DNA of 64,000 bases, from NCBI GenBank assembly GCA_027082775.1, contig JALWUI010000063.1, forward strand, positions 4,975-68,974. Reading direction: 5' to 3'. Below the pieces are notes generated by a model. That model had not been told where the DNA came from, searched no databases, and saw only the letters and a list, made by a program, of their open reading frames with translations. The translations under genes were made by a program, and so were the position numbers. This DNA is from Candidatus Kapaibacterium sp. (GTDB lineage: Bacteria; Bacteroidota; Ignavibacteria; Kapaibacteriales; WFXC01). Of the stretch, positions 8,217 through 61,822 are shown piece by piece. Within the stretch, counting starts at the first letter, position 1, and the number at the start of each line of letters is the position of its first letter.

Positions 8217-8264
8217 TACTCAGCACCTTCCACTTTTTAGTCAGTAACATAGCCGCGATTTTTA

Positions 8265-9904: not shown

Positions 9905-9989
9905 AGCACTTTTGCTGTTCTTTGTTTCCCATCTCCAATAGATCTGTGTCTTGATTCAGCTACACGCTTCGCCGGGAAGCTGCTGACTC

Positions 9990-10073
9990 GCTTGGCACAT
10001 AAGCGTTATTCAACGAACGTTTAATAACGCGCTGGCTTATTCAACGAAAAGGGCGTTTCGTTTAATAAGATGG
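9990..10073. promoter_or_regulatory. Direct-repeat element upstream of the HTH-ImmA gene (candidate operator)
   Basis: Two copies of TTATTCAACGAA...CGTTTAATAA lie 36 bp apart in the hsdM-ImmA intergenic region. Confidence 0.3.
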
Positions 10074-11794: not shown

Positions 11795-12035
11795 GGGGGC
11801 GCACGCTTCAGCGTACATTCCCCTCACCCTAACCCTTTCCCAGAGGAAGAGGGGATTTCTTGCACCCGTAGGGGCGACCGGCTGGTCGCTCACCGGGCGA
11901 AGCACCACTTCGCCCCTACCATTGCACCGGGAGCGCACACTTCAGTGTGCACTTCCGATCCTTCTGCCGGCGAAAGCCGGCGCTTCCAGTTGTTGCCAGC
12001 AAGAGCTGGCGCTTTTCGCGCTTTTTCGTTGTAGA
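11795..12035. repeat. Hairpin-array repeat cluster B
   Basis: Positions 11796-11945 are about 93% identical to 6810-6960 of cluster A in the same orientation. Additional hairpins: GCACACTTCAGTGTGC, CCGGCGAAAGCCGG. Confidence 0.7.
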
Positions 12036-26260: not shown

Positions 26261-27115
26261 ATGCGGCTTGTGGGTACGGCGTTTTTACTGCTTTCCTTGA
26301 TCGCTTTTTTTCCTCCTTCCGGATGGAGCGTGCCGCCGGTCAAGCACAAGGCGGTATCGAAGCAGAAAAAGAAGCATAAACATCAATTGCGGCGGTACCG
26401 GCGGCGATCGAATACCCGGAAAGGGAAGCAGCAGGCAATGATGTTTTTGCAGGCTTACGAAGATCTGGCAAAGCTGGCAGGATTGCCGTATAAGCCGCCG
26501 GCAGATCAGCAGCAACTGCAACAAATGGTGAATGAAGATGGCGAGGTGCTGACCGATACCGAAGCAGTGGCAATGCTGCCAGAAACCGATACGCTTTCCT
26601 GGAATCCGGCTGATTACGATATCACCGCTTTTCGAGAACAATGGGATGCGTACATTGCCCAATTTGAGGACGAAGAAGTGACCGAAGCCGGAGTTGAGAA
26701 AAAAGCTATTCTGCATTCGATTCTGGAATGGATTGGAACTCCCTATCGGTACGGCGGTACCACGCGTCGCGGGATCGATTGCTCCGCTCTGGTACAACAC
26801 GTTTATCGGCAGGCAGCCGATGTCCAGTTACCCAGAACTGCGCGGTATCAGTATTTGCTGGGACAACCGATTGAGGATATCGATGATCTTCGCTTTGGGG
26901 ACTTAGTCTTCTTCCACACCCGCCGCTCCGTCTATGTTTCACACGTTGGGATCTATTTAGGACACAGGCTGTTCGCCCACGCCAGCTCTCGCTACGGAGT
27001 GACCGTCTCTTCGCTGGAAAGTCCCTACTACCGCAAGCGGTTCATTGGAGGGCGGCGATTGCGCGTCGACGATCTGTTTAATTTGCAGGCAGTAACCGCC
27101 GGACAAACCCAGTAA
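26261..27115 (+). CDS. NlpC/P60 (C40) family peptidase
   Basis: Catalytic Cys context GIDCSALV, conserved His in HVGIYLG, signal peptide. Confidence 0.8.
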   Translation: MRLVGTAFLLLSLIAFFPPSGWSVPPVKHKAVSKQKKKHKHQLRRYRRRSNTRKGKQQAMMFLQAYEDLAKLAGLPYKPPADQQQLQQMVNEDGEVLTDTEAVAMLPETDTLSWNPADYDITAFREQWDAYIAQFEDEEVTEAGVEKKAILHSILEWIGTPYRYGGTTRRGIDCSALVQHVYRQAADVQLPRTARYQYLLGQPIEDIDDLRFGDLVFFHTRRSVYVSHVGIYLGHRLFAHASSRYGVTVSSLESPYYRKRFIGGRRLRVDDLFNLQAVTAGQTQ

Positions 27116-30287: not shown

Positions 30288-33200
30288 ATGCAACGATTCA
30301 CTCTGTCGCTGATCGTTCTGTTCCTGACAACCGCTTCGCTGTCGAGCCGCACGATTTCCGAAATCTACAACGTGATCGCATCGCCGTATAGTTACGTTCC
30401 CGTGTCGCAATCGAATTCTTCAACCCTGGTGGATCTCAAGCAATATACCTCAACCTATCCAAGCAGTCCGCTGTATGGCAATTATGACGACGGCATTATT
30501 CTGCTGGGAAATTTTGGTAATTCTCAGGTCATCAATTTTGCGTTCCCGTTCAATTTGAATGAGGAAAACCAGAATGTTTTAGCACACGCTGTAAGTACGA
30601 ATGGAATGTTTCAACCCATTCGGACGCGTTCCAGCGGGGGAGGTGTGGTCACCGTGAACTCTTTTCCGTATCCATCCAGCGCCGGATACTGGGGGAATTC
30701 CCAGACCTGGAATGCAATCTTTGGCTTCGGAGGCGATCTGGATCTCTCGAACGACACGACGTCGAAATGGTACTATGCGGTTCAGGGGAGTGCACCGAAT
30801 CGGCGAATTGTCTTTGAATGGCGAAATGCGAAGATTTATGGTACCAGCACGCGGGTGACTTTCCAGATCATTTTGAACGAGTCCGATAAGTCGATCGACT
30901 TTGTCTTTGGTGGCGTCAACGGTCCGATGCCATCAAATATGACCTTTTACACCGGTGTAAACGAAGGAACGGCAGCGTTGTCCAATTACAACATTCCTGA
31001 AAAAGACAGCCACGGCGATCCGGGAAATTACATTGCGTGTAAATTTGAGAATGGATCGTGGACGTACTCCAGTTCGGTGTCGAATCCATACGGAACGATC
31101 GGAACGTTCCCGACAGAAAATATCCGCTTCTGCATTGCCCCGATTCTGAACGTATCTGCGCCGCCAACAACATTGTTCAATGCAGCGACAAATACAAATG
31201 ATCGGATCAGCGTGGGAACAACCCTGACAAAGACGTACACCATTACCAATCAGAATTCTTCCAATGCGCCGCTGAAGATCACTACCGAAATTTCCGGTCC
31301 GGGTGCCGGTTCGTATTCGGTGACCCCCGCGCAGGTGGCAGCCTTGCAACCGGGCAGTTCGCAGCAGTTTCAGGTAACGTTTTCCGGCAATGCGTTCGGT
31401 CCACGGAACGCTCAGTTGATTTTCCGCCTTTCGTCCATTGATGGTGCCAGTTGTCCTGAATTTCTGGATCCGGTCTCTGTTGGACTTCAGGGGCGCGTTC
31501 TGGGATTGGATGCTGTGATCGATCCGCTGGAGCTGGATTTTGGACAGGTTGCGGTGAATGCAACGACGGATCGAGAGTTTGCCCTGTTCTGGAATGAATC
31601 TTCGCAGACGTTGCGCTACCGCTTCTATGACCTGCAGGGGGGAGAGTTCCAGTTGCTGGGAGCGACCGGCGTTCCGCCAGAAATCGTCGGTACCGTGGCG
31701 CCGGGTGATACGGTGAAACTTCCCATCCGGTTTCATCCCAGCAGCATTGGACAGCAGCAGGCAACGGTGCGATTTCAGTATTCAAATGTGCAGCAAACGG
31801 TGTTTTCCGATGAGTACCTGGTCACGGTGCGCGGCGAGGGGACACCCACACGGTTGAAGTTTGCCATCGGCGATAACGATGAGCACGCTCCATCCGGTTC
31901 CGTGCTGGGACAGCAGCGGGAGGCAGTGGTTGGTGAACAGCCGGCAGACTTTCCCTTTACCATTTCCAATACCGGGATCGGCGGGAACGTGCGGCTGTGG
32001 AATTTCCACTTCGTTGCGCTGGATGTGGATAATCCCGTCGGTGGGCGGTTCCGCGTGCTCTGGACCCACGGCTTTGGCCAGGGAGAACCGGTGTCGCTGA
32101 ATCGCCACTTCCGGTTGCAGGCGTGGAATGGAACGGCGTGGGAAATGGTAGATCCGGCAGTTGGGGTGACGGTGAAACCGGGAGAATCGCTGCAAATGCG
32201 GGTGCTCTTTGCTCCCCATCGACGGGGCGTGTATTTTGCCCGGATGTTCTTCCAGACCGATGCAACTGCCGACCACAACTACAATGCAATTGAGGCGTTG
32301 AATGAAGCCGATCAACTCACTGCTGGATTGCAGTCCTATGATCTATACGGGTTGCGGGCACGAAATTCCCGGCTGGAACGGTTGAAGAGAGTGGAATTTC
32401 CGCCGACGAAGATTGGGCACTCAGCAGAAGTGGCGGTGCCGATTGTGAACACTGGCGATGCCCGGTTGCTCATCGACCAGTCAAGGGTGCGGCTGTTGCC
32501 CGGTGATCCTGATTTTGAAATTGTCTCGGCGTTTCCCCAGAAACCGATTGACAATGGCAACTACGTGATCGCTGTGGGCGACACCGGATACATCTACATT
32601 CGGTTCACGCCGCAGGCGATTGGTGCGCGCTACTCCCGATTGGAACTGTACTGCAATGATTCAACCAATGCAGAAAGCACTCGTGGACGGCGTTCCGCTT
32701 TTATCTTTGGAGAAGCGGTGGGAGTGCCAGTGCTGGATGTGCAACTGGCAGGATCCGACACGGTCCTTTTCGCTCAGGATACCGTTGTGGTCGGGGATCC
32801 AACCACGTACAAGACAGCGAGTGTTCAGCTTGTGAATACGGGAAGCGAGACCTTAGAAATCACCGACATTCTGCTCAGCGGTGCCAATGCTGACGACTAT
32901 CAGCTTGCCTACCGAACGTGGCGGAAAGATCCAGAACCACAGGGAGATTTGCCCTGGCTGCTGGAGCCCGGTGATCAGCGCACGGTGACGGTGAGTTTTA
33001 TGCCGCAGACGCCGGGACATAAATCTGCTGCAGTGCAAATTCGGAGTAATGCAGAGAATGGCGCAGTGCTGGAAATTCCACTGGGTGGCTTTGCTGGCGT
33101 TCGCACAATCGCTGCCGCTGTTGATACCCTCTTCCTCACCGATAGCGTGGTGATCCAGGAAACGATCACGCGCACCGTTGCCATCCTGAATACCGGCACT

Positions 33201-34022
33201 GTGCCGGTACAGATTCTCAACGCAACGATTCAGGATGATGCAAATCGGAGCTATGCAGTCAACTTCTCCGATCCGGTCACCATTCCACCGTCGGAAAGCT
33301 ATGATCTGGAAGTGCGGTTTACGGGGAAGGAACTGGGACCGCAGCCAGCGACCTTGGTGGTAGAAAGCAATGCGACCGATGCGGCACAGTTGCACATCGC
33401 GCTGGCAGGCTATGTGGGATATCGCCTCCTGCGGTCGATTAGCCCGTTGATCAAAGTGACCCGGCACATCACCCCCGGTGGATTGCAGGGCAGCGAAGGG
33501 TGTGTCGATTTGCAAAATCTGGGCGACATCTCCCTGCGGATCCTCAGCGTTGCGATTTACGGTGATCAACTGGGTGAGTTTGAAATCCTCGAGTACCCGG
33601 AAGTGCTGATGCCGAATCAAAAAGCACCGTTGTGCATTCGGTATACTCCGAAATCTGAGCAGTTCCCCACCGCCTTTGTGGAAATCGAAGACAACGATCC
33701 ACGGTCGGTCAATCTGACCATTCCGATCAACATCATCGTTACGGGAATTGCCAAACAGCCGCACCAGAATCGAGGGATTACCGCAACGCTCTACGACGAG
33801 AACCGGGTGCTATCCATCGACCTGGCACTCACCCATCCGCAGCCAGTGCAAATTCGGATAACGGATCTTGCGGGCAAAGTGCTCTTTCAGGCGAAGGAAA
33901 CCAATCCGGTAACCCGGCTGCGGTTGCAGGTGCCGGCAGAGCGATGGAGTAGTGGTTTATACGTATTGCACGTTCAGGGCGTCGATGGTCAGTTAACACA
34001 ACTCTTTTCCATCGTGCGCTGA
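30288..34022 (+). CDS. 1244-aa secreted multi-Ig-like-domain protein with T9SS C-terminal sorting domain
   Basis: Signal peptide; many DFGQV..N.t repeats; C-terminal T9SS CTD-like beta-sandwich (...LYVLHVQGVDGQLTQLFSIVR). Confidence 0.6.
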   Translation: MQRFTLSLIVLFLTTASLSSRTISEIYNVIASPYSYVPVSQSNSSTLVDLKQYTSTYPSSPLYGNYDDGIILLGNFGNSQVINFAFPFNLNEENQNVLAHAVSTNGMFQPIRTRSSGGGVVTVNSFPYPSSAGYWGNSQTWNAIFGFGGDLDLSNDTTSKWYYAVQGSAPNRRIVFEWRNAKIYGTSTRVTFQIILNESDKSIDFVFGGVNGPMPSNMTFYTGVNEGTAALSNYNIPEKDSHGDPGNYIACKFENGSWTYSSSVSNPYGTIGTFPTENIRFCIAPILNVSAPPTTLFNAATNTNDRISVGTTLTKTYTITNQNSSNAPLKITTEISGPGAGSYSVTPAQVAALQPGSSQQFQVTFSGNAFGPRNAQLIFRLSSIDGASCPEFLDPVSVGLQGRVLGLDAVIDPLELDFGQVAVNATTDREFALFWNESSQTLRYRFYDLQGGEFQLLGATGVPPEIVGTVAPGDTVKLPIRFHPSSIGQQQATVRFQYSNVQQTVFSDEYLVTVRGEGTPTRLKFAIGDNDEHAPSGSVLGQQREAVVGEQPADFPFTISNTGIGGNVRLWNFHFVALDVDNPVGGRFRVLWTHGFGQGEPVSLNRHFRLQAWNGTAWEMVDPAVGVTVKPGESLQMRVLFAPHRRGVYFARMFFQTDATADHNYNAIEALNEADQLTAGLQSYDLYGLRARNSRLERLKRVEFPPTKIGHSAEVAVPIVNTGDARLLIDQSRVRLLPGDPDFEIVSAFPQKPIDNGNYVIAVGDTGYIYIRFTPQAIGARYSRLELYCNDSTNAESTRGRRSAFIFGEAVGVPVLDVQLAGSDTVLFAQDTVVVGDPTTYKTASVQLVNTGSETLEITDILLSGANADDYQLAYRTWRKDPEPQGDLPWLLEPGDQRTVTVSFMPQTPGHKSAAVQIRSNAENGAVLEIPLGGFAGVRTIAAAVDTLFLTDSVVIQETITRTVAILNTGTVPVQILNATIQDDANRSYAVNFSDPVTIPPSESYDLEVRFTGKELGPQPATLVVESNATDAAQLHIALAGYVGYRLLRSISPLIKVTRHITPGGLQGSEGCVDLQNLGDISLRILSVAIYGDQLGEFEILEYPEVLMPNQKAPLCIRYTPKSEQFPTAFVEIEDNDPRSVNLTIPINIIVTGIAKQPHQNRGITATLYDENRVLSIDLALTHPQPVQIRITDLAGKVLFQAKETNPVTRLRLQVPAERWSSGLYVLHVQGVDGQLTQLFSIVR

Positions 34023-34162: not shown

Positions 34163-34455
34163 CCGGCGGGTTTTCGTTGGTAGAAAAGTTTCGCACGTCA
34201 CTCACGGGAAACACGCATTGCAGCCCGCATTTAGCGGGAGCGCACGCTTCAGTGTGCATTCACTGGGAACGTACCCTTTAGGGTGCAAAGATGCCGGCTA
34301 AAGCCGGTGCTCCCAGTGTGTGTGTATTCAACCATCCTCACAACATCCCATCCGTAGGGGCGACCCGGCTGGTCGCCCACTTTCTACATCCGCAGGAACT
34401 CTCGATAGCTCATCGGGCGAAGCACCGCTTCGCCCCTACCATTGCGCGCAACTAC
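34163..34455. repeat. Hairpin-array repeat cluster D
   Basis: Positions 34163-34292 are about 95% identical to 37396-37525 of cluster E in the same orientation. Also contains a 22-nt direct repeat CAAGCGTGCAACG..TCGCAGA, two copies between 34050 and 34145. Confidence 0.7.
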
Positions 34456-37395: not shown

Positions 37396-37925
37396 CCAAT
37401 CGCTACTGGGTCTCCATCGGTGAAAGAATCTTTCGGCACGTCACTCGCGGGAAACACGCATTTCAGCCCGCATTTAGCGGGAGCGCACGCTTCAGCGTGC
37501 ATTCACTGGGAACGTACCTTTAGGGTGCATTTACTGGGAACGCACCCTTTAGGGTGCATTCTTGCCGGCTAAAGCCGGCGCTCCCGGTAAGGCACTCCCT
37601 GTTACTGGGAGCGCACCCTTTAGGGTGCATTCTTGCCGGCTGAAGCCGGTGCTCCCAGTGGGGTTTACTGGGGGCATACGCTTCAGCGTACGTTGCCCTC
37701 ACCCTACCCCTTTCCCAGAGGAAGAGGAAATTTCCTGTATCTGTAGGGGCGACCGGCTGGTCGCCCATCGGGCGAAACATTGCTTCGCCCCTACATATCA
37801 CGCTGGGAGCGCACCCTTTAGGGTGCATGCCGACTGAAGTCGGCGCTCCTGGGTGGGTTGCGACAGGGGAGCGCACGCTTCAGCGTACACCATCTGTGGT
37901 AGGACAACCCTCCGGGTTGTGCAAG
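37396..37925. repeat. Hairpin-array repeat cluster E (largest)
   Basis: Units GCACGCTTCAGCGTGC, GCACCCTTTAGGGTGC (several copies), CCGGCTAAAGCCGG, CCGACTGAAGTCGG, GCGACCGGCTGGTCGC, GGGCGAAACATTGCTTCGCCC and GGACAACCCTCCGGGTTGT. Confidence 0.75.
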
Positions 37926-38014
37926 CTAAGCCAGCGGTTTGCTCTACTATTTATATCCTGTCGTCGAAAGCTGGTGCTCCGGTTTACTCTTCTTCCTGAG
38001 CACAGAAACTCCGA

Positions 38015-39613
38015 CTACTCTGCCACCAGCTCGTGCCATTGCAGAAATGTCAGCGCTGGCATTCGCCCGCTACCTTCTTCCCACTCCTGCTGCCGTTTCT
38101 GCTGGTAGTATTCCGTGATCGACATACCTGCTGCTTTCGCTTCCAGCCAGGTGAGAATATCGAATTCGATCGATTCCTGCTCCAGAGCTTCTGAAAGGAT
38201 GCGATGGATGCGCTGGTAAAACGGCAGCGTTGCCGAAAGGTGCGATGCGGCAACAGTGCTGGATATTCGCTGCAGGATGCGTCGCATCACCCCTACCACG
38301 GGGACAAATGAAGGGTACTGCTGCACAAAGCGGTAGAGGCGTCCTAAAGCACGCTCTGTTGCTTCAAAGTCGCGCTGTTCCCAGGCGATGATGCTGAGAA
38401 GGAGTCGCACGAGAAAACCGATTTGTTGCAACAGCCGTTGTGAGGTGCGATCGTATGCGGCTTCCAGGTACTGACGGGCAAGGTCATACTCTTGCAGCCA
38501 GAAAGCAATGCAGCCAAGGTGGTACAAAGCCGCTTTGTAAAAGTAGGGATATCGCTGGCAATACTGTTGCAGAATCTGTTCGATTATCTGCCGATGGGCA
38601 AAGATTTCTTCAAACTGTCCTAATTCCAGCGCCAGATACAACACCACGTTCAGATACAGCATCTCCACCTCGTCCCTGATGATGTCGTTTTCTTGAGCAG
38701 CACCGTTTTCCTGTTGCCAAAGCTGTTTGATGGTTTCAAATCGTCGCTCGATGGTGTGGGCATCGCGGGCGGCGGCAGCACTGATAATCTGGTTATGCAG
38801 CGCATTGAAATAGGCTAACGGGTACCACTGCGGTCGCTGGGAATCGTACTGAAAATACTGGATCAACTGTTCATAGCATTCTACTGCCCGTGCTGGCTGA
38901 CCACTAATAGCCCATAGCAGTGCCTCGGTGTTCCAGCGCAAAAAGGGGATGGGGAAAGGATCGGTCATATAAGCAGGAATGCACTGAAGCTGATCGATCA
39001 CTGGCTGAATAAGCATCTTGCCCTTAGCACTGGAAGCTCGAACGTTGCCCTCAACGTAGCGGGTGTTCCACCGGGAGTGAATATCCAGTAATTGCACGAA
39101 CCGCTGGGTCTGGTCCAGCGCTTCCTGCAACTGTTTCAGGTGCTGAGAAAGCTCCTCCTGGCTGAACAACTGAAAATTCCGATGACTGTGATACTCAAGT
39201 TGCAACACCGCTGCCGCCAGTTTTTGCACAGGATCACCAGCGATGTCGGCAGTGCGGTAGGTTTTTTGTGCGGCTTTTATAGCATCGCTATCCTGTCCTC
39301 CTACAAAAGCGAAGCGGGAGAGAACCAGGTTGAACAGTCCAGCACTCTGCTTGTCCTGTTTCATTAAAACGTACGTTCCAATCTGCAACACTCTGGTATA
39401 CACCTTGTGCCGCAGCGCTCGAAGATCTGTCTGAATTCCCTGCTGCTGGAGGGCAGAGCGCAACTGTTGATCGCCCCATTCTGGATGCTGTTCCAGAAGC
39501 TCCAGAAAGACCTGCTCTGCTTCCGTGAGTTGAATCCGTATCCCTTGCTTGATTTGCTGCCACAGGTCTGAAGGAAGTGTGCGCAATAATTGATTCAGTT
39601 TGTAATGTGCCAT
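38015..39613 (-). CDS. Hypothetical all-alpha (TPR-like) cytoplasmic protein, paralog 1 of a two-member family in this window
   Basis: No signal peptide; helical composition. It is roughly 65-70% identical across its full length to the ORF at 51807..53387 (MAHYKLNQLLRTLP... vs MADHKLDQLLRALP...). Confidence 0.6.
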   Translation of the reverse strand: MAHYKLNQLLRTLPSDLWQQIKQGIRIQLTEAEQVFLELLEQHPEWGDQQLRSALQQQGIQTDLRALRHKVYTRVLQIGTYVLMKQDKQSAGLFNLVLSRFAFVGGQDSDAIKAAQKTYRTADIAGDPVQKLAAAVLQLEYHSHRNFQLFSQEELSQHLKQLQEALDQTQRFVQLLDIHSRWNTRYVEGNVRASSAKGKMLIQPVIDQLQCIPAYMTDPFPIPFLRWNTEALLWAISGQPARAVECYEQLIQYFQYDSQRPQWYPLAYFNALHNQIISAAAARDAHTIERRFETIKQLWQQENGAAQENDIIRDEVEMLYLNVVLYLALELGQFEEIFAHRQIIEQILQQYCQRYPYFYKAALYHLGCIAFWLQEYDLARQYLEAAYDRTSQRLLQQIGFLVRLLLSIIAWEQRDFEATERALGRLYRFVQQYPSFVPVVGVMRRILQRISSTVAASHLSATLPFYQRIHRILSEALEQESIEFDILTWLEAKAAGMSITEYYQQKRQQEWEEGSGRMPALTFLQWHELVAE

Positions 39614-39875
39614 CGTGCGTTCAGCTTGCTTGAACGTCCCGGCATAAATTTAGCAAATTGGATGCAAAGCGCTGTTGCCTTTGCCACTTTGCGAGAGTCT
39701 CAGGCTTCAATCTTTTGGGGACACTATTCAACGCAAAGACAGCCCCTTTCCTGACTGCTAGCACTTCTGCAAACATTGTTCAGTGTGGAGGGAACGAGCA
39801 GCGCACGGCACCGAGTCAATGGGCGTGTTCTCGCAGTGGTATACATGCCCGATCTTCGCGTACCAATGTTTGTTG

Positions 39876-40571
39876 TCAATCGTTATGCTGGCGCAGTGCT
39901 TCCAGTACCTGCTGGATGTGGCGACAAACGGTTGTCGCAGAGCAGCGATGGAGGCGAGCAATTTCTTCTAAGGTCCATCCCTGAGCCCTGCGGTACACCA
40001 TATCCCAGACGTCCGGACCGAACCGCCGGCGTATCCACTGCTCAAGACGCTCCAGTTGCAGTCGGGCATCCACTGTCATTTCGGGAGAATGCAAGTCGAC
40101 CGGTTCCTGAGAGAGTGCAGACACTTTCTGCGCCCGTCTGCGATTCTCCGAGGTGAGAGAGCGAACGGCGACTTTTTCCGCATAGCGCCAGAGCGCTCCG
40201 GGAATATGCCGAATCTTCCGGGGTGATTTCTCCAGAAGGACTGCAAGCGCTTCTTGTACCGCATCCTCTCGATCCTCTGGAGGAAAAGCAGCAAAGTGGT
40301 GGTCCAGAAAGTGCTGGAGCGTGTGCTGCAAGATGCGAAGCGCAACCGGGAACTGTAAGAGGTCAGGCGGGTGATAACTCGACACCTGGCATTGCTCTGC
40401 AACTTTCGGGAGGAGGGCATCAAAGTGGAAGAACGCATCTACCACCTCCGTTATGGACTCTTCCTCCAGTAGTTGACCCAGGACCTGCGTTATTTGATGC
40501 GGTGCGATATCTGGCAGGGCATACTGGAACAGTGGTAAGAGTTGCTGGACAATGGTCGTCTCCTCACTCAT
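39876..40571 (-). CDS. Sigma-70 family (ECF-like) RNA polymerase sigma factor
   Basis: Region-2-like EDAVQEALAVLLEK..ALWRYAEKVAVRSL and region-4 HTH GWTLEEIARLHRCSATTVCRHIQQVLEAL. Start assigned to MSEETT, with a TTTG-N15-TTAAATTAG promoter-like element just upstream. Confidence 0.6.
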   Translation of the reverse strand: MSEETTIVQQLLPLFQYALPDIAPHQITQVLGQLLEEESITEVVDAFFHFDALLPKVAEQCQVSSYHPPDLLQFPVALRILQHTLQHFLDHHFAAFPPEDREDAVQEALAVLLEKSPRKIRHIPGALWRYAEKVAVRSLTSENRRRAQKVSALSQEPVDLHSPEMTVDARLQLERLEQWIRRRFGPDVWDMVYRRAQGWTLEEIARLHRCSATTVCRHIQQVLEALRQHND

Positions 40572-40823
40572 AGCGATATACCCCCATCTCAGCGACTCTT
40601 TGATCGGTTCTAATTTAAGCATTTCCCTGCAAAATCGGCATCGATGCCCATTATGCGATGCCTCAGCCACTGAGGAACCGGTTTTTTTTCTCTTTGCAGA
40701 TTTCTCGATCACCGTCAGCACTTTCACTGCTGGCTCCAGCGATTGGACGTGAAAAATTTTGCGCCGAAAATCCTCTATAGAGTTTGGGAAGGTAATCAGT
40801 CGCAAAACTACGATAGATAGGCT

Positions 40824-41285
40824 ATGAGAAGAAAGGCAACAGTGATTTTCATCTTGATGGGATTGTTTGTCAGTGTGTATTATACCAATGCAGCAACTAA
40901 AGATTGGGTGCCTTCTTTAAAATGCGGACCTGGAATTGTTTTTACTCGAGTGGGACCTGCTATCGAATGGCTATGCTTCGAATATGTGGCAGGTTGCTAT
41001 GTAACCTGCAAATATGTGTGTACCTATGAATCGGAAGGTCACCGTTATACTTTCGTCTTTAGATGTAGAGAAGGACTGTGGCAGTTTCCATCTTTAGTAT
41101 GTCTGCGACGTCCTTATGGTGTTCGGAGTTGCAATGATCCTCAAGATCTCTTCTTATTATGCAATCAACAATTCTCAGTTTTACAGCAGATTTATTGCGA
41201 GAGCTGCGAAGACTTTGACAGTGGAGATATTTTCTGTGCTCAGGTTTTGACCATAGAGCCGCGAATTCTGGCGCCCGGACAATAA
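40824..41285 (+). CDS. Small secreted cysteine-rich protein with Sushi/CCP-like spacing; lies in an AT-rich islet
   Basis: Signal peptide; about 13 Cys residues; the segment C-GPG...C...G-Y..C...G..Y....C..G-W..P...C resembles the Sushi/CCP consensus. Local GC is about 42% against about 57% elsewhere. Confidence 0.45.
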   Translation: MRRKATVIFILMGLFVSVYYTNAATKDWVPSLKCGPGIVFTRVGPAIEWLCFEYVAGCYVTCKYVCTYESEGHRYTFVFRCREGLWQFPSLVCLRRPYGVRSCNDPQDLFLLCNQQFSVLQQIYCESCEDFDSGDIFCAQVLTIEPRILAPGQ

Positions 41286-41318
41286 GAGCCGTTTCACAGA
41301 TAAAGGAAGCTCGAAAAG

Positions 41319-42659
41319 ATGCGTTGGAGATTAATAGGATTGTTCGTTATTTGCGCTTGTTGTAATTCTTTGTTTGCCCAGCGATGGATTGACCAATTTT
41401 ACCCGCATCCTCTCTTCCTTCTCTCAATGAGGGATGAGGGTAAGCTTTCATACTACGAATTTGATGATCACTTTGACTCCGTTGGGATTAGTTGTACCAT
41501 TGGTGAATTCCGCCTCCTGCTGGACAGCATAACGGAACGGGTAATTCCCATCCAGTACGAGTCCATTCCTTCTGAAGGGATCAAAGGGATTCCAGATCGT
41601 GGACTGGACACCTTTCTCCTCAACTTCACGCGCACGGATACCTTTACCATTCCCAGCAATGCAACACTCTTTTTCTTTCGATTACTTCGTCGCGGTTTCC
41701 CATTTCTGCCGATACCACTGGACTCGTCGCTGTCGCCACCGCATTGGACCGATGCGTACTGGGTAACGCCACCGGGATGGATTCAGGATACGGTAATTTT
41801 CGTCACGGAGCTCCGCCGCGCCAGTGACAACACAGTACTGGCAGTACTCGACAGCGTCGGCGTATATCCGAATCGGCAGTCGTGGTTTCCTGTTCGCTTT
41901 GGCACTGAGCCCAATCGAACGCGGCATTTCCGATCGCTTCCTTCAGAACTTGCAGGAACGACTGCATACGTGCAGATCAAAGCCTATCGGTATGGTCCCA
42001 CGCCGTATGGCCTCCATCTGTTCCGCTCCTTAGAATGGTGCTCCCTCTCTACTATGATGGAGTATGACAGTAGTGCAATAGCCGAAGGGCGGGGTATATG
42101 GGCTATTTCAGAGGCGGAAATGGACTCCCTAAGCCACGCATATTATGCTACTTTGCGCGCCTACCTGGACTTTGGCTTGGCAGCAACAGGCAAGTTGCCG
42201 CCGCACATTCCTCCCTTTGCCTTTGTACTGGACTCTGCAATTCGGGCGGATTACGAAGCACGCTACGGGGGGTATCCCAGGGAATTTGATCCAGAATTTG
42301 TATTTGTGCTGGACACGATTTGGGGCGATACCAGTGCACGGATGATTCGAGGAAAGTTGACCGGCATTACATCGACTGCTATCTCTTCCATCTCGTTCAT
42401 AAGCGTAACTGTCGATGGCAATGCTTCGCCACCAGTACTGCACCTGAAGATCGTCACATCGCAACCATTGCCCGGTAGTACCATTTCAATCATCGATGTC
42501 TTAGGACGAGACCTTGGTCTCATCTGGAACAGCAATCTTCAGTCTGGCAGCAATGAGCTCCAGATCCCGCTCCCGCAATCGCTCTCGACAGGACAATACT
42601 TCCTGATACTCCGCGATCAACACAATCAGATCCTCGCCATCCAGGACTTCACGTTATAG
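41319..42659 (+). CDS. Hypothetical secreted protein with T9SS C-terminal sorting-domain-like tail
   Basis: Signal peptide MRWRLIGLFVICACCNSLFAQ. The C-terminal 80 aa have a CTD-like beta pattern (...QYFLILRDQHNQILAIQDFTL). The 5' portion is AT-rich. Confidence 0.5.
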   Translation: MRWRLIGLFVICACCNSLFAQRWIDQFYPHPLFLLSMRDEGKLSYYEFDDHFDSVGISCTIGEFRLLLDSITERVIPIQYESIPSEGIKGIPDRGLDTFLLNFTRTDTFTIPSNATLFFFRLLRRGFPFLPIPLDSSLSPPHWTDAYWVTPPGWIQDTVIFVTELRRASDNTVLAVLDSVGVYPNRQSWFPVRFGTEPNRTRHFRSLPSELAGTTAYVQIKAYRYGPTPYGLHLFRSLEWCSLSTMMEYDSSAIAEGRGIWAISEAEMDSLSHAYYATLRAYLDFGLAATGKLPPHIPPFAFVLDSAIRADYEARYGGYPREFDPEFVFVLDTIWGDTSARMIRGKLTGITSTAISSISFISVTVDGNASPPVLHLKIVTSQPLPGSTISIIDVLGRDLGLIWNSNLQSGSNELQIPLPQSLSTGQYFLILRDQHNQILAIQDFTL

Positions 42660-42819
42660 CAGTGCCGCCGGGGGCACAATACCCCCGGTGGTGGAATTCA
42701 GTCCCCGGCGTTTCCGGACATTTCGCGCAGGCTTGCACCACAGATAAGGAATAAGCGCCTACGCCAGTCGGCATCACCTCCGGCTCCACGCGCATACTTA
42801 CCAAAAACCGGCTATGTTC

Positions 42820-43310
42820 CATCGACCGGGAGCGCACACTCTTAGGTGTGTATCGTTGATCCTTATGCCGACTGAAGTCGGCGCTCCCAGTCGGCGCTCC
42901 CGGTAAGCGATCCCAACTGCTGGGAGCGCACGCTCTTAGGCGTGCATTGCCCTCACCCTAACCCTCTCCCAGCGGGAGCGGGAATTTTTGCATCTGTAGG
43001 GAGCGACTCGGCTGGTCGCCATCACCCGCACCCGTAGGGGCGACCGGCCGGTCGCCCCTACTACACATTTACGCCAGTGCCTCCTTTATCATCTGCCGGC
43101 TGAACCCGGCGCTCCCAGTTCAGTGCTTCCACCTACTGGGAGCGCACACTCTTAGGTGTGCATCTACTGGGGAGCGCACCCTTCAGCGTGCATTCACTGG
43201 GAGCGCACCCTTTAGGGTGCATCTTTGCCGGCTAAAGCCGGCGCTCCCAGAGGAGCGCACGCTTCAGCGTGCACCATCTCTGTGGTAGGACAACCCTCCG
43301 GGTTGTCCAA
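42820..43310. repeat. Hairpin-array repeat cluster F
   Basis: Units GCACACTCTTAGGTGTGT/C (3 copies), CCGACTGAAGTCGG, CTCACCCTAACCC..GGGAGCGGG, GGCGACCGGCCGGTCGCC, GCACCCTTTAGGGTGC and GGACAACCCTCCGGGTTGTCC. Confidence 0.75.
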
Positions 43311-43548
43311 AGCAATGCTTTGCTATCCACTGCTGGCGAAAGTCGACGCTCTCAGCCCTGAGGAAGGAAATAGAGCAGATGGCTTTTTCCATATGGAGGA
43401 AATCTTCGAGGCTTCGGGAAGAACCGTGCCCAGGTTCAGCGAAGGACGTATCCTAAGAGTGCCGATAGCGTGCCTTCCTTGCTTATGTCAGATTTCGATA
43501 GCTACACATCACGGAAACCCACGCGATGGCTGCTGCCCGTGAAAATCC

Positions 43549-44937
43549 TCAACGCACCACAATCACCTTCACTGTTTTGTTCAATTCCCCAGCACGGATG
43601 TGGCACAGGTAGATGCCTTCAGGTATCCCCAGCAACGCCCATCGCACCTGATGTTCGCCGGGTGGCAGCATCCTATCGACCAGCGTTGCTACGTGGTATC
43701 CCAGCAGGTTGTAGATTTCCAGCGCTACGGGTGCAGGCTTCGGCAGCGAAAAACCGATGTGGATGTCAAGGCTGGCGGGAGGGTGCACAACGTTGACCTT
43801 CCACGGAATATCTCCATCATCGCTCAGGTCCGTGGACGATTGCGCATCCAGCCAGAAGGCTTCTCTCCAGCGACCTGCTATGGCATTGAATCCTACGCCC
43901 ACGATGTAGCGGCCATCTGGCAGGATGGCGCGTGCTTCCTTGAGAAAGGAATCGCCGGCGAGCAGGGTGCTGTAGGTCTGGCTGAGGTTTTCCGCTATGC
44001 CTGCCACGGCATCCCACCGAACAGCGCGGACCTCGCCACTATCATTCTCTGCCCAGCCGACGACATACCGTCCGTCCGACGAAACGCCCACAGCCCAACT
44101 CGAACCGCCGCCCAGCGTACCGAGGTCCTGGGTCAGACCAGTTTCCATATCCCACCGAACAGCGTGGACGTCACCGCTGTCATTCTCTGCCCAGCCAACC
44201 ACAAATCGCCCGTCGGCTGAGATGCCAAACGCATAGCTTTCGTTCCCTCCTAAGGCTCCAAGCTCCTGAATTTCCCCGCTCTGCATATCCCATCGCACAG
44301 CGCGCCATTGCCCAGCAGCATTTTCTGCCCAGCCGACAACAAATCGTCCATCGGCGGAGATCCCGTAGGCAATGCTCTCACTGCCGCCCGGCGTTCCCAG
44401 TTCTTCCATCTGTCCAGACTGCATATCCCACCGTACGGCACGCCATTGCCCAGCAGCATTTTCCGCCCAGCCGACGATGAAGCGTCCATCGGCGGCAATG
44501 CTATACGCCCGACTCCAGCCACCACCCAGATGCCCCAGATCCTGCACCTGGCCGGTTAGCGCATCCCACCACGCAGCGCGCCGCCAATTGCTGTCGTTTT
44601 CTGCCCAGCCGACGACATATCGACCATCGGCGGAAATCCCGAACGCGACACTCTCCTTTCCTCCAAGGGTTCCCAGATCCTGCACATGTCCAGTCAGCAC
44701 ATCCCACCGCACAGCTCGCCGCCAGCTACTATCGTTTTCCGCCCAGCCGACAACGAAACGCCCATCGGCAGAGATCCCATACGCCCAGCTTTTACTTCCG
44801 CCCAGCGTCCCCAGCCAGCGCAGATGCTGCCCGTTGCCGGTGCTAACAGCAAGGAGCAGAACGAAGCCTGCTGAATACACCCATCGACGCATTGCTTCTC
44901 TCCTGATCGTTCCTGAAAGTACGAGGGAAATTAACAC
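43549..44937 (-). CDS. HAF-repeat protein (seven repeats) with T9SS C-terminal sorting domain
   Basis: Seven tandem units (RRAVRWDvlTG.vQDLGTLGG..S.A.GISADGRfVVGWAEN) followed by a CTD (GIYLCHIRAGELNKTVKVIVVR). The start may be the internal MRRWVYS (44892). Confidence 0.7.
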   Translation of the reverse strand: MLISLVLSGTIRREAMRRWVYSAGFVLLLAVSTGNGQHLRWLGTLGGSKSWAYGISADGRFVVGWAENDSSWRRAVRWDVLTGHVQDLGTLGGKESVAFGISADGRYVVGWAENDSNWRRAAWWDALTGQVQDLGHLGGGWSRAYSIAADGRFIVGWAENAAGQWRAVRWDMQSGQMEELGTPGGSESIAYGISADGRFVVGWAENAAGQWRAVRWDMQSGEIQELGALGGNESYAFGISADGRFVVGWAENDSGDVHAVRWDMETGLTQDLGTLGGGSSWAVGVSSDGRYVVGWAENDSGEVRAVRWDAVAGIAENLSQTYSTLLAGDSFLKEARAILPDGRYIVGVGFNAIAGRWREAFWLDAQSSTDLSDDGDIPWKVNVVHPPASLDIHIGFSLPKPAPVALEIYNLLGYHVATLVDRMLPPGEHQVRWALLGIPEGIYLCHIRAGELNKTVKVIVVR

Positions 44938-48017: not shown

Positions 48018-48340
48018 AGCGTTGACCCTGAGAGCGCCGGCTTTAGCCGGCACGTTCATGCACCCTAAAGGGTGCGTTCCCAGTGAATGCACGCTGAAGC
48101 GTGCGCTCCCAGTGACTGGAGCGCCGACTTCAGTCGGCAACAACTTCCCTCCTTCTCTGGGAGAGGGTGAGGGTGGTGCACACCTCAGAGTGTGCGCTCC
48201 CAGGCGATGGAAACACCGACACTGAGAGTGCCCCACTGGGAGCGCCGACTTCAGTCGGCAATAACTAAACAGCAGGACAAGCCGCTGGCTTGCCCTGGAC
48301 ACCCCGGAGGGGTGTCCTACCACCGTAAATGCGCACTGAA
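48018..48340. repeat. Hairpin-array repeat cluster G (inverted orientation relative to D/E)
   Basis: GCACCCTAAAGGGTGCGTTCCCAGTGAATGCACGCTGAAGCGTGCGCTCCCAG is the reverse complement of the D/E module. Also CCGACTTCAGTCGG (2 copies), CCCTCCTTCTCTGGGAGAGGGTGAGGGTGG and GGACACCCCGGAGGGGTGTCC. Confidence 0.75.
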
Positions 48341-51806: not shown

Positions 51807-53387
51807 CTACTGCGGCACCAGCTCGTGCCATTGAAGGAATTTCAATGCTGGCATTCGTCCGCTGCTTTCTTTCCACTGCTGCTGCCGCTTCTGTTGATAA
51901 TACTCCGTGATTGATATCCCCTGCACCTTGGCTTCCAGCCAGGTAACCAGGTCAAACTCGATCGATTCTCGTGCCAAAGCCTCTGAAAAGATGCGATAGA
52001 TGCGCTGGTAGAACGGCTGCTCCTCCGGCAGTCGATGTGCTGCAAAGGTGCTCGGCATCCGCTCTACTATACGTCGCACTGCACGTACCACCGGAACAAA
52101 AGCTGGATACTGCCGGACGAACCGGCGAAGACGCTCCAGTAACCGTTCCAACGCCTCAATGTCCTGCTGCTCCCAGGCAATGATGCATAAAAGGAGTCGG
52201 ACCACAAAGCCAATTTGCTGCAACAGTCGTTGCGAGGTATGATCGTAAGCGGCTTCCAGATACTGGCGGGCAAGGTCGTATTCCTGTAACCAGAAAGCGA
52301 TGCAGCCCAGGTGGTATAAAGCCACTTTGTAAAAATATGGATACTGTCGGCGATAGTGCTGCAGTATCTTTTCAACGTGCGACCGGTCATTGAAAATGTT
52401 GTCGAAGCTCCCTAATTCCAGAGCTAAATACAGGACGATGTTCAGATACAACATATCCATTTCGTTTTTGATTGCAGCATCCGATTGCTGCCGGAGCCGT
52501 ATAATTTCCGCAAAGCACCGCTCGACGATCGCTGCGTTTCGGGCTGCTGTTGCAGCAACGACCTGATTATGCAATGCACTGAAATATGCCGGTAAATAAA
52601 GGTGTTTTCGACTTTCGGCGATCTGGAAATACCGAAGAAGCTGTTCATAGCATTGCACTGCTTTGTCCGGTTGTCCCTGTATGTTCCACAGCAGCGCTTC
52701 GGTGTTCCACCGCAGAAATGGGATGGGAAACGGGTCTGCTTCATAAGCAGGAATCTTCTGGAGTTGCTCGATAACCATAGGAGCAACTGTTGCAGCTTCG
52801 GAACTGGAAATCCGAATTTCTCCTTCAACGTACCACGAATACCATCGAGCATTTAACAGAAGCAATTGCACATATCGTTGAGTCTGGTCCAGGGCAGTCT
52901 GCAAGTGCTCGAAACTCTTACGTAATTCCTCGTGATCCAGCAGTTGGAGGTTTCGATGCAGATGGTACTCAAGCTGTAGCGCCATTGCTGCCAGCTTTTG
53001 AATAGGATCACCAGCGGTATCGGCTGAGCGATAGGTTTTTGCCACAGCCTTTAAAGCATCGCTATCCTGCCTCCACTCAAAAGCAAAGCGAGAAAGAACC
53101 AGATCAAACAATATAGTACTTTGTTTGTCCTGTTGCATTAGCACGTATGCTCCGATCTGCAATACCTTGGTGTACACTTTATGCCGCAGTGCTCGAAGAT
53201 CTGTCTGAATTCCTTGCTGCTGGAGCGCAGAGCGCAACTGTTGATCGTCCCATTCTGGGTACTGCTCCAGAAGACTCAGAAAAGACTTTTCCACCTCCGT
53301 CAGTTGAATCCGTATTCCCTGCTTGATCCGCCTCCGCCACACTGGCGGCAAGGCGCGCAGGAGCTGATCCAGTTTGTGATCTGCCAT
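51807..53387 (-). CDS. Hypothetical all-alpha cytoplasmic protein, paralog 2
   Basis: Full-length similarity to 38015..39613. Start assigned to MADHKLDQLL by alignment with its paralog. A conserved element, CATAAA(T)TTAGCRAATTG, lies 35-45 nt upstream of both paralogs. Confidence 0.6.
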   Translation of the reverse strand: MADHKLDQLLRALPPVWRRRIKQGIRIQLTEVEKSFLSLLEQYPEWDDQQLRSALQQQGIQTDLRALRHKVYTKVLQIGAYVLMQQDKQSTILFDLVLSRFAFEWRQDSDALKAVAKTYRSADTAGDPIQKLAAMALQLEYHLHRNLQLLDHEELRKSFEHLQTALDQTQRYVQLLLLNARWYSWYVEGEIRISSSEAATVAPMVIEQLQKIPAYEADPFPIPFLRWNTEALLWNIQGQPDKAVQCYEQLLRYFQIAESRKHLYLPAYFSALHNQVVAATAARNAAIVERCFAEIIRLRQQSDAAIKNEMDMLYLNIVLYLALELGSFDNIFNDRSHVEKILQHYRRQYPYFYKVALYHLGCIAFWLQEYDLARQYLEAAYDHTSQRLLQQIGFVVRLLLCIIAWEQQDIEALERLLERLRRFVRQYPAFVPVVRAVRRIVERMPSTFAAHRLPEEQPFYQRIYRIFSEALARESIEFDLVTWLEAKVQGISITEYYQQKRQQQWKESSGRMPALKFLQWHELVPQ

Positions 53388-54012
53388 CACTTTTCTGTTG
53401 CTATCTGTCACAGACCCACCAGACATAAAATTAGCGAATTGAGTCCGAATAGTTGCTGCATTTTTCACGTGCTGAAAAGATGCACTCCTTTTTCTGCCAC
53501 ACTTTATTCAAACGGGAAGAAAACGGCAGAGGCTTTGTGCTCATTCCACCGCCCAGCGCAGAGAGCAGAGCAATGTCGAATCCTTCGAGGATAACACAAA
53601 AGGGACAAAGAATAAAAAGAAGCGAGCGTTGCTCGAAAGCGCGTCTTTGGTCTTCGGGTCTCAGAAACAAAGGACCCAGTATGTACGAGAGCGATCTACA
53701 ACGGTAGCTGGTGCAACCAGTAGCTCAGGCTCCATAAAGAACCAATCCTCTGGCAGTAGCACCACCGGGCTTGTTCCTCGACGGGAAAACACCTGCCGAT
53801 TTCGCAGGATCAGCGTGATCAGATCTTTTCATTTTTCGACCCAACTACCCGTGACCACCCCATCGCTGTATGTGCTGGAATGCGGAGTCGGGGAATACTG
53901 AGGCGATGCTGCTGGCGTTCCTCAGACATCAATGGAATCCCATTGCAAATGCCCTGCTGTATTGGAAGTCAGGAGCTTTGGAGGTTTGATTCAACCAGCA
54001 CCCGTACTGGAG

Positions 54013-61483: not shown

Positions 61484-61822
61484 GCCCGGACAACCCGGAG
61501 GGTTGTTCTACCAACGATGAAGCTCCACTGAAGCACGCATTTCCAGTAAACCGTAGGGGCGAATGCTGAGAGCGCCGACTTCCGCCGGCAAAGGTTAAAA
61601 CACCGTGTAGGGGCGAAGCGATGCTTCGCCCGGCGGGCGACCAGCCGGGTCGTCCCTACGCGTATGTGGCGACCAGCCGGGTCGCTGCTGCTGGGAGCGC
61701 TGGCTTTCGCCGGCAAAAATGCACCCTAAAGGGTGCGCTCCCAGTAAACGCACGCTGAAGCGTGCGCTCCCAGTAAATCCTACCCGAAGTGCCGACTGGA
61801 AGCGCCGACTTTAGCCGGGCAA
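61484..61822. repeat. Hairpin-array repeat cluster H (inverted orientation)
   Basis: Units GGACAACCCGGAGGGTTGTTC, GGGGCGAAGCGATGCTTCGCCC, GCGACCAGCCGGGTCG (2 copies), GCACCCTAAAGGGTGC, GCACGCTGAAGCGTGC, CCGACTGGAAGCGCCGACTTTAGCCGG. Confidence 0.75.

Follow-up and report, generated by a model that had tools for sequence, protein, structure and literature searches.

In a Kapaibacterium-like genome, a member of the Bacteroidota, positions 40782-41375 of the window (the whole 64,000-nt stretch of DNA that was analysed) stem from a recent replacement of DNA that is specific to this lineage. The segment, to which no strand is assigned, is 594 nt long, takes the place of 123 nt in relatives and is known from this single genome. 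It holds ORF1 (40824-41285, + strand), followed by a spacer of 33 nt and then by the start and signal-peptide codons of the next gene, ORF2. ORF1 is a recently acquired orphan gene that is probably coding. The preliminary description had suggested that this region is an islet acquired horizontally, and this holds: the segment is absent from five close loci and one distant locus, the GC1 and GC3 of ORF1 are 4-5 SD below those of host genes, and its product ignores the Q-rule that governs other secreted proteins of the window.

The extent of the segment was defined by comparison with the closest Candidatus Kapaibacterium metagenome-assembled genomes. In blastn searches, window positions 39000-40780/40781 and 41376-42715/42721 aligned to five loci (L002, L003, L004, L010 and L011) at 88-94% identity, whereas the stretch between these flanks aligned to none of them. 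The breakpoints were identical in all five loci, each of which contains 123 nt at this position. In a more distant relative, the outgroup L005, the gap is just 307 nt and ORF1 is absent. A second, separate assembly (L001, a Logan contig of SRR13853571) is base-for-base identical to the window over 37820-42898, with both junctions included. Neither hallmarks of mobility nor an identifiable donor were found. The window's ORF list contains no integrase or transposase, a scan of the region for tRNAs found none, and only short, chance-like matches were obtained for terminal inverted repeats or a target duplication at the segment. The inserted DNA was not found in JGI metagenome contigs, IMG/VR, phage and plasmid collections, the rest of the window or any of the fetched loci.

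Consistent with a foreign origin, the base composition of the segment is atypical of the host. Its GC content of 41.6% is below that of every gene and intergenic region examined, compared with a window mean of 53.3% (and not ~57%, as the preliminary description had it). The part of the 64 kb in which ORF1 lies is the poorest in GC: only 0.35% of all 462-nt windows are equally AT-rich. The GC content of ORF1 is also below all 16 intergenic gaps measured (0.45-0.62). Within ORF1, GC decreases stepwise over the three codon positions (0.474, 0.429 and 0.364, respectively), a pattern that fits a coding sequence. The codon usage is likewise unusual: GC3 in host genes is 0.568 ± 0.041, approximately 5 SD above the value for ORF1, and ORF1 was the only gene examined with a GC3 below 0.45. 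This unameliorated composition indicates a very recent arrival. The AT-rich islet is therefore real, but it is smaller than the 40.8-42.0 kb first proposed, because the low-GC stretch runs from ~40600 to 41500; positions 40824-42000 have 47.0% GC, and ORF2 as a whole has an ordinary 50.9%. Relatives show the same AT-richness in the promoter region (40600-40781) and over the initial 100 nt of mature ORF2. The GC dip is thus partly ancestral, and only 40782-41375 is new.

ORF1 runs from an ATG to a stop codon and encodes 153 amino acids, with 12 cysteines (about 13 had been reported), all in the mature part. An ORF of this length is improbable by chance: 0.07% of dinucleotide-shuffled versions of the insert contained an ORF of at least 153 codons, and the ORF1 frame contains no stops, compared with 6-10 in each of the other five frames. 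Its 12 cysteines exceed the 5.9 ± 2.1 expected (p=0.007) and amount to 9.2% of residues, compared with 0.88% in host genes; their number is even and all of them lie after the signal peptide. ORF1 cannot be shown to belong to any known family. Among 5.8 billion protein clusters, its only match was ORF1 itself, and no relative was detected in JGI metagenome contigs, IMG/VR, phages, plasmids, the rest of the window or the fetched loci. Scans with Pfam, NCBIfam, PHROGs and PADLOC returned no match, and no ORF1-like ORF was found upstream of the ORF2 paralogues (L007-L009, L012 and L013). Scans of the region for Rfam families, tRNAs and terminators were also empty, giving no sign of an RNA gene in place of a protein gene. 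ORF1 is not preceded by a Shine-Dalgarno-like site; genes without such a site are common in Bacteroidota, so this absence weighs little. AlphaFold2, run on the single sequence, produced no confident fold (pLDDT 41), and the low-confidence model was all-beta after the signal peptide.

The N terminus of ORF1 is Sec-like, in agreement with the earlier view of a 153-residue protein with a signal peptide. The predicted Sec/SPI signal peptide (40824-40892, + strand; MRRKATVIFILMGLFVSVYYTNA, followed by A), which was read from the sequence by inspection, comprises MRRK, a 16-residue hydrophobic core and a predicted cleavage site after TNA and before Ala. Its maximum 10-residue hydropathy (3.2) ranks with the highest found at N termini across the window. 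These features suggest that the ORF1 product is probably exported by the Sec pathway. The predicted signal peptide is followed by neither a Gln at +1 nor a lipobox Cys. Under the Q-rule of Bacteroidetes, Gln occupies the +1 position after SPI cleavage (PMC5837995, PMC10653852). Gln is found at this position in 13 of the approximately 15 SPI-type secreted proteins of the window, ORF2 included, but not in ORF1.

ORF1 had been thought to resemble a Sushi/CCP module of eukaryotic type. The Cys/Trp pattern on which this was based is present: residues 34-93 (40923-41102, + strand) have the spacing C34-x31-C66-x14-C81-x3-W85-x7-C93, with a tail motif C-x2-G-x-W-x2-P-x3-C and extra cysteines at C51, C58 and C62. 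Sushi domains are beta-sandwiches with C1-C3 and C2-C4 disulfides and an invariant Trp between C3 and C4, and ORF1 has four framework cysteines in ~60 residues with a Trp in that position. The loose C1..C2..C3..W..C4 framework also appeared in 4.8% of composition-preserving shuffles, and in 0.8% when an aromatic residue two positions before C2 was included. The conserved core of the family reads C-P-x-P around C1 and Y/F-x-C-x2-G-Y/F-x-L-x-G around C2; ORF1 instead has CGPG and YVCTYESEG.

Membership of the Sushi/CCP family is not supported by sequence and profile searches. Pfam PF00084 (gathering score 20.7 bits) matched neither the whole of ORF1 nor mature ORF1 nor residues 33-96, even at E<=10, and a PDB sequence search with ORF1 returned no Sushi chain at E<=10. 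Two phytase matches in the latter search (E about 0.7) were taken as chance. Alignment of ORF1 to a Sushi profile by hhalign gave a probability of 0.8% over 16 columns, and an HMM built from 487 Sushi domains gave 1.4 bits, a score that 6% of shuffles reached. These profile alignments covered only ORF1 residues 79-93, corresponding to HMM positions 42-56, the C3-C4 tail. When the ORF1 model (pLDDT 41) was compared with the PDB by Foldseek, there was no Sushi chain among the 50 matches listed and no match at E<=0.001; as expected for such a model, the comparison was uninformative. By contrast, an exhaustive phmmer search of 1.84 billion proteins produced a single match to ORF1, a teleost Sushi-repeat protein (E 6e-6), and the reverse search with the teleost protein as the query gave ORF1 13.9 bits, compared with a maximum of 8.6 in 20,000 shuffles. 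The score of the teleost match is, however, the sum of four near-identical repeats aligned to the same ~40 residues of ORF1 through one motif, C-x2-G-x-W-x2-P-x3-C. One copy of the repeat is worth 14-27 bits, which is not significant against 1.8 billion sequences, and a profile of nine Sushi repeats from the same protein scored ORF1 no better than shuffles.

Residues 34-93 could conceivably form a true Sushi/CCP module that has diverged very far, disulfide-bonded between C34 and C81 and between C66 and C93 and ultimately of eukaryotic or rare bacterial CCP origin, as the fitting Cys/Trp spacing, the aromatic residue before C2, the sole phmmer match, the reverse search and the all-beta model would suggest. 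We regard this as improbable. The similarity drops when a profile replaces a single sequence and so behaves like a chance match, and the search matched a single Sushi-repeat protein although the library should contain many. The module would also contain three extra cysteines and lack the CPxP and GY/F-x-L-x-G positions. A literature search on bacterial Sushi domains and Kapaibacterium biology found no directly useful account. ORF1 gives no evidence for a eukaryote-type complement-control module in bacteria.

ORF2 (41319-42659, + strand) encodes a conserved secreted protein of 446 amino acids with a beta-sandwich body. Its signal peptide (41319-41378, + strand) has a cleavage site between FA and QRW. 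The junction of the segment with ORF2 is in frame and falls precisely on the Ala(-1) codon, ahead of the invariant mature N terminus QRWIDQFYP. In the spacer between the two genes (41286-41318, + strand; 33 nt), a purine-rich AAAGGAAG at 41302-41309 ends 9 nt before the ORF2 ATG, and its AGGA core (41304-41307) ends 11 nt before. ORF2 would have remained functional because its RBS-like site, start codon and signal peptide, joined in frame, now come from the segment. ORF2 is still under purifying selection (dN/dS 0.26-0.27); relaxed or positive selection after the insertion was rejected (dN/dS 0.27), and the divergent blocks of ORF2 are high in dS too, which points to recombination. Homologues share 82%, 54% and 43-46% identity with ORF2, and the family, which is uncharacterised, comprises 8 clusters in 5.8 billion proteins.

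ORF2 is a probable conserved T9SS cargo. The second gene had been called a CTD protein. ORF2 itself falls short of the cutoffs: its probable T9SS type A C-terminal domain (~42390-42656, + strand) scored 16.5 bits with PF18962 (cutoff 27) and 17.7 bits with TIGR04183 (cutoff 23). Three of eight homologues match the CTD model at E<=0.1, the best at 1.6e-5. In the AlphaFold2 model of ORF2 (pLDDT 64), seven C-terminal strands (residues 358-445; block pLDDT 65-89) form a sandwich. A functional assignment by structure was abandoned, as Foldseek returned only generic beta-sandwich matches for this model.

Upstream and divergent from ORF1 lies an ECF-type gene of the sigma-70 family on the minus strand, as had been noted. 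It extends from 39876 to between 40622 and 40805 in window coordinates, its start codon being uncertain: gene callers give 231-283 amino acids and the longest ORF 309. The product matches TIGR02937 with 45.4 bits (cutoff 42.9) over model positions 26-163 of 165, and has Pfam matches to HTH_23 and Sigma70_r4, the region-4 matches being sub-threshold. Downstream of the sigma gene is a gene for a 532-residue TPR protein (38015-39613, - strand), which has a TPR_2 match and, over the full length, a match to NF058569, the BT2802 family, that scores far below the threshold. Synteny of the sigma-TPR pair with ORF2 is seen in the close relatives L002-L004, and the distant L005 keeps a sigma-like gene divergent to ORF2. 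By inference from this arrangement, the divergent sigma factor might regulate ORF1 and ORF2.

On balance, we favour, with modest confidence, the explanation that a recently acquired segment carries a truly coding ORF1, a gene for a Sec-exported protein that is probably co-transcribed with ORF2. The AT-rich 594-nt segment would have been inserted between the ECF-type sigma gene and the conserved T9SS-cargo gene ORF2. The mature ORF1 product would be an exported protein of ~130 residues with up to six disulfides and, because it has no T9SS C-terminal domain, would stay periplasmic or in vesicles. We propose co-transcription with ORF2, probably from the old ORF2 promoter region, because the two genes lie on the same strand, are separated by a 33-nt gap and have no terminator-like site between them (there is none in 40300-43600). 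As to function, our guess for ORF1 is a small disulfide-rich protein of the binding or inhibitor type, or else a passenger that is almost neutral.

It is possible, although we think it unlikely, that the inserted DNA is instead a non-functional passenger derived from coding sequence elsewhere, with ORF1 being transient, awaiting decay and not usefully expressed. Selection would then act on the segment only in that it leaves ORF2 a functional start and signal peptide. ORF1 remained a singleton in all databases that were searched, and a never-expressed fragment would look alike; the unameliorated composition, the missing host-type Q+1 cleavage site, the failure of AlphaFold2 to find a fold and the fact that all sampled relatives manage without ORF1 also fit this explanation. 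However, ORF1 is not a gene fragment but a full cassette that has ATG, signal peptide and stop, and its cysteines are enriched and even in number. The length of the ORF is unlikely for non-coding DNA, yet it would also be explained if the sequence was coding in the donor. Much further from plausibility is an assembly artefact, in which the 594-nt segment was mis-joined from metagenomic reads of another organism. The genome is metagenome-assembled, the segment is foreign in composition and it comes from one sample only, but both junctions recur in the separate Logan contig, and a random chimera would not produce an in-frame join at the Ala(-1) codon together with a functional-looking start and signal peptide.

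As to how a coding ORF1 could have arisen, we raise the doubtful idea that it is a newborn gene formed by signal-peptide capture, through a 477-nt (159-codon) in-frame insertion within the signal-peptide region of ORF2. The start codon and hydrophobic core that formerly belonged to ORF2 would now export a new Cys-rich polypeptide, and the 3' end of the insert would have brought a fresh RBS, ATG and n-region, rebuilding the ORF2 signal peptide. The putative intermediate would be an ORF2 with the signal peptide MRRKATVIFILMGLFVICACCNSLFA and without ORF1. Consistent with this idea, ORF1 shares its reading frame with ORF2, and both signal peptides contain a copy of a 17-nt imperfect direct repeat: copy 1 (40854-40870, + strand; TTGATGGGATTGTTTGT) lies in that of ORF1, and copy 2 (41331-41347, + strand; TTAATAGGATTGTTCGT) lies 477 nt downstream, in the same frame, in that of ORF2. 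The repeat is weak evidence, with p=0.0017 in a post hoc in-frame shuffle test and p=0.085 in an unconstrained local alignment. Deleting 40871-41347 restores an intact signal peptide, MRRKATVIFILMGLFVICACCNSLF, before the cleavage site between Ala and QRW, and the remaining 117 nt are close in length to the ancestral 123 nt, with weak similarity to them (z=3.7, p=4e-4).

Provided that ORF1 is expressed, the locus would illustrate, within clear boundaries, how a bacterial orphan gene that encodes an exported protein rich in disulfides emerges. The value of the case is in its exact breakpoints, its sister sequences in the ancestral state and a neighbour kept functional by in-frame replacement of its signal peptide. 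It could be used to study the origin of orphan genes and whether the Q-rule of Bacteroidota constrains newly acquired secreted proteins.

Several known systems can be compared with this locus. Like ECF sigma factors that are encoded with a partner regulator divergently from their target, the sigma-70/ECF-type gene and the TPR gene are divergent to ORF2, and this arrangement is conserved in the close relatives; unlike them, no anti-sigma domain was recognised here, and the sigma protein has an unusual N-terminal extension. ORF1 is similar to Sushi/CCP/SCR (PF00084) domains in having, within ~60 residues, four cysteines and one Trp with Sushi-like spacing and the tail motif, in its predicted extracytoplasmic location, and in that its best remote match is a teleost Sushi-repeat protein resembling complement regulators. 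It differs from them in lacking profile-level similarity and the conserved positions around C1 and C2, in the three additional cysteines inside the module, and in a further 60 Cys-rich residues (C103-C138) without Sushi features. ORF2 shares with T9SS type A cargo (TIGR04183/PF18962) a Sec signal peptide that obeys the Q-rule, a modelled C-terminal seven-strand beta-sandwich, a weak CTD match of its own and a neighbourhood that holds many clear T9SS cargo genes, but it is below both curated cutoffs and its body belongs to a tiny uncharacterised family.

In bacteria, recent horizontal acquisition typically shows itself as strain-specific ORFans in small AT-rich insertions. Similar to such insertions, the segment is missing from the closest relatives while its flanks are conserved, exceeds the host in AT content, has third codon positions that are still unameliorated, and encodes a short, homologue-free protein with no assigned function. 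By contrast, it is just 0.6 kb long with one gene, lacks an integrase, a tRNA, a transposase and any clear target duplication, and replaces 123 nt rather than being a simple insertion, and it re-supplies the start codon and signal peptide of its neighbour in frame.

ORF1 (40824-41285, plus strand, 153 aa) and ORF2 (41319-42659, plus strand, 446 aa) are divergent from a minus-strand gene (39876-40805; maximal ORF 309 aa) that scores 45.4 bits against TIGR02937 (cutoff 42.9) and thus encodes a sigma-70/ECF-type factor, in agreement with the preliminary description; its start is called inconsistently, with six lengths of 231–283 aa across assemblies. The next gene (38015-39613, minus strand) encodes a 532-aa TPR protein, as judged by profile searches. 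The signal-peptide ORF claimed at 40824 is present: its N terminus, MRRKATVIFILMGLFVSVYYTNA followed by ATKDW, reads as a Sec signal peptide. A second TPR protein gene (51807-53468, minus strand), whose product is 68% identical over its full length, sits among other T9SS-cargo genes with no sigma gene seen upstream. Each of the two TPR proteins gives an end-to-end match to the BT2802 family (NF058569) that scores far below threshold, and this may be a regulator that recurs at T9SS-cargo loci.

A genome scan identified Candidatus Kapaibacterium sp. MAGs (Bacteroidota) as the closest genomes, and homologues of ORF2 were found at 82%, 54% and 43–46% identity. The three contigs with the 82% homologue (L002–L004) retain the TPR–sigma–ORF2 order, with just 283 nt from the sigma gene to the ORF2 start; in the more distant locus L005 (54%), a sigma-like gene is also divergent to ORF2, across a gap of 307 nt. 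ORF1 is absent between sigma and ORF2 in all four. By blastn, the left flank aligns up to 40780/40781 at 94.3% identity to L010 and about 90.5% to L002, L003, L004 and L011, and alignment restarts at 41376 at 88–89%; between these breakpoints the window has 594 nt and the relatives 123 nt. On the right, the breakpoint is the codon for Ala(−1), the last signal-peptide residue of ORF2 (FA before QRW), directly 5′ of the mature N terminus QRWIDQFYP, a sequence kept in all six closer family members bar one R-to-Q change. The insert therefore took the place of the former ORF2 leader (5′ UTR, start codon and signal peptide) and provided an in-frame replacement. In the Logan assembly of run SRR13853571, window 37820-42898 recurs without a single difference, which argues against an assembler-specific chimera. 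The Logan gene call begins ORF2 at Met37 (410 aa; L001 position 3608; window 41319-41426), losing the signal peptide; the 446-aa start at 41319 is backed by the homologue alignment.

Base composition also sets the segment apart. The window averages 53.3% GC, not the 57% first estimated, and ORF1 has 42.2%, an AT-richness equalled in just 0.35% of 462-nt windows. In 100-nt steps the dip spans about 40600 to 41500; the described AT-rich islet is therefore real around ORF1, but ORF2 is ordinary from 41700 on. The GC1/GC2/GC3 values of ORF1 are 0.474/0.429/0.364, against 0.608/0.419/0.568 for the host (mean of 30 long genes, SD 0.03–0.04), and none of 19 further ORFs had GC3 below 0.45. The 16 intergenic gaps measured all lie at 0.45–0.62 GC, so ORF1 is unlike mere spacer DNA. 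With a composition atypical of this genome and a segment missing from relatives with conserved flanks, the proposed horizontal acquisition is supported. The second-lowest GC stretch of the window is 7398-11627 (minus strand), in which ORFs 7398-8216 and 8265-8753 have 47.6–48.1% GC; from their N termini, we take these two and ORFs 8753-9904 and 10074-11627 to resemble a type I restriction-modification S subunit, a PIN-like protein and an HsdM-like methylase.

Across protein, metagenome, phage and plasmid searches, ORF1 was found only as itself. A search of 5.8 billion clusters returned it on one 80.6-kb and one 5.2-kb contig, and exhaustive phmmer against 1.84 billion representatives added one weak match; no match to its back-translated pattern turned up in JGI metagenome contigs or IMG/VR, tblastn and blastn found none in phage and plasmid collections, and the insert showed no similarity to the remaining window or any fetched locus. 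Only 0.07% of 20,000 dinucleotide shuffles of the insert gave an ORF of 153 aa or more, and stops number zero in the ORF1 frame and 6–10 in each of the other five. All 12 cysteines, rather than the 13 first counted, follow the signal peptide (residues 34, 51, 58, 62, 66, 81, 93, 103, 113, 125, 128 and 138), against 5.9 ± 2.1 expected (P = 0.007); the cysteine share is 9.2%, compared with 0.88% in host genes. GC also declines stepwise from the first codon position to the third. Together these features say that the DNA probably is, or was until recently, coding, which does not in itself prove expression in the Kapaibacterium host.

The weak match bears on the suggestion that ORF1 is a Sushi/CCP module, of which the quoted cysteine/tryptophan spacing is indeed present (C34-x31-C66-x14-C81-x3-W85-x7-C93). 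The match (E = 6e-6, 42 bits, four stretches) is to P0010, a nine-repeat Sushi protein whose nearest relatives are teleost complement regulators; the four stretches belong to a single repeat subtype, hardly differ from one another and align to the same ORF1 residues, and the best BLASTP HSP has 27 bits. Reverse phmmer gave 13.9 bits, against a maximum of 8.6 in 20,000 shuffles, a score far from significant for a 1.8-billion-sequence search. Using profiles in place of the single sequence weakened the signal: with the nine repeats, hhalign gave a probability of 0.8% over 16 columns, an HMM of those repeats scored ORF1 at −1.4 bits, and an HMM of 487 Sushi domains from 120 fish proteins gave 1.4 bits, equalled by 6% of shuffles, aligning only at HMM positions 42–56 (C..G.W..P...C). 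The whole protein matched no Pfam family at E ≤ 1, and the mature protein and residues 33–96 matched none, Sushi included, even at E ≤ 10; phmmer against all PDB sequences gave no Sushi chain at E ≤ 10. The loose four-cysteine-plus-tryptophan framework occurs in 4.8% of shuffles of ORF1 composition, or 0.8% if an aromatic residue is also required at the second position ahead of C2. Foldseek with an AlphaFold2 model made without an alignment (pLDDT 41) found no Sushi chain among the 50 matches listed, none of which reaches E ≤ 0.001. We conclude that the likeness is a short motif and that membership of the Sushi/CCP family is not supported; a very divergent CCP-like fold seems unlikely.

The ORF2 family is very small (eight clusters found), with a second paralogue in several Kapaibacterium genomes. 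As to its description as a CTD protein, the T9SS sorting-domain match of ORF2 itself is weak, and TIGR04183 is matched by three of eight family members. An alignment-based AlphaFold2 model (pLDDT 64) has beta-sandwich domains, a helical segment and seven C-terminal strands, for which Foldseek found generic sandwiches and nothing more specific. The dN/dS against L010 and L002 is 0.26–0.27, so ORF2 is still under purifying selection. No terminator-like site was found in the ORF1–ORF2 gap, and no Rfam family matched the region. On the left flank the nearest relative of the window is L010; within ORF2 (41376-42659) the window is a mosaic outlier, at 78–99% identity by block, whereas L010 and L002 share 93–99%. 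The low-identity blocks (78–86%) also have high dS (0.5–0.7). This incongruence points to recombination with a more divergent lineage outside the sample, perhaps also the source of the 594-nt segment.

Downstream, relatives carry a 135-aa PEGA-domain gene between ORF2 and a HAF-repeat gene (L002 9665-10072, minus strand) that is missing from the window (42721-42804 versus L002 9406-10278), which makes both ORF2 flanks indel hot spots in the lineage. GC-rich palindromic repeats of one family are scattered between genes, at 42660-43548, 6787-6966, 11796-11951, 34237-34287, 37480-37889, 48059-48109 and 61720-61770, making many intergenic regions GC-rich. The family core, GGAGCGCACNCTNNAGNGTGCA, occurs 19 times in the window (0.01 expected), alongside TGCCGRCTRAASYCGGCGCTCCCAG units and a GTAGGGGCGACCGGCCGGTCGCCCCTAC hairpin. 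These repeats look REP- or MITE-like; the same units recur between genes of L002, and the Logan contig ends within a cluster of them.

Gln follows the cleavage site in 13 of about 15 recognisable SPI-type secreted proteins of the window (1954-56823), ORF2 included, as in the Bacteroidetes Q-rule (PMC5837995, PMC10653852). The ORF1 site, between TNA and A, has no Gln nearby, which argues that ORF1 is not host-adapted. Besides ORF1, possible exceptions lie at 30288-34022 and 26261-27115, and the genome appears strongly Q-rule-obeying.

How the segment arose can be approached through a 17-nt imperfect repeat, one copy in each signal peptide, in the same reading frame and 477 nt apart. Without those 477 nt, 117 nt remain; they code for an unbroken signal peptide, and their alignment to the ancestral 123 nt gives z = 3.7. 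Signal-peptide capture through in-frame insertion would account for this arrangement, but the repeat passes only a post hoc in-frame test (P = 0.0017) and fails an unconstrained local-alignment test (P = 0.085); we therefore treat capture as a possibility, and a rather unlikely one, not a finding. We favour the reading that ORF1 is an orphan gene, acquired recently and lodged in the leader of a probable T9SS-cargo gene, whose own product would be small, exported and rich in disulfides; the chief alternative is that ORF1 is a passenger and is not expressed. A strain-specific orphan islet is an ordinary kind of feature; what is unusual here is the precision with which it is documented.
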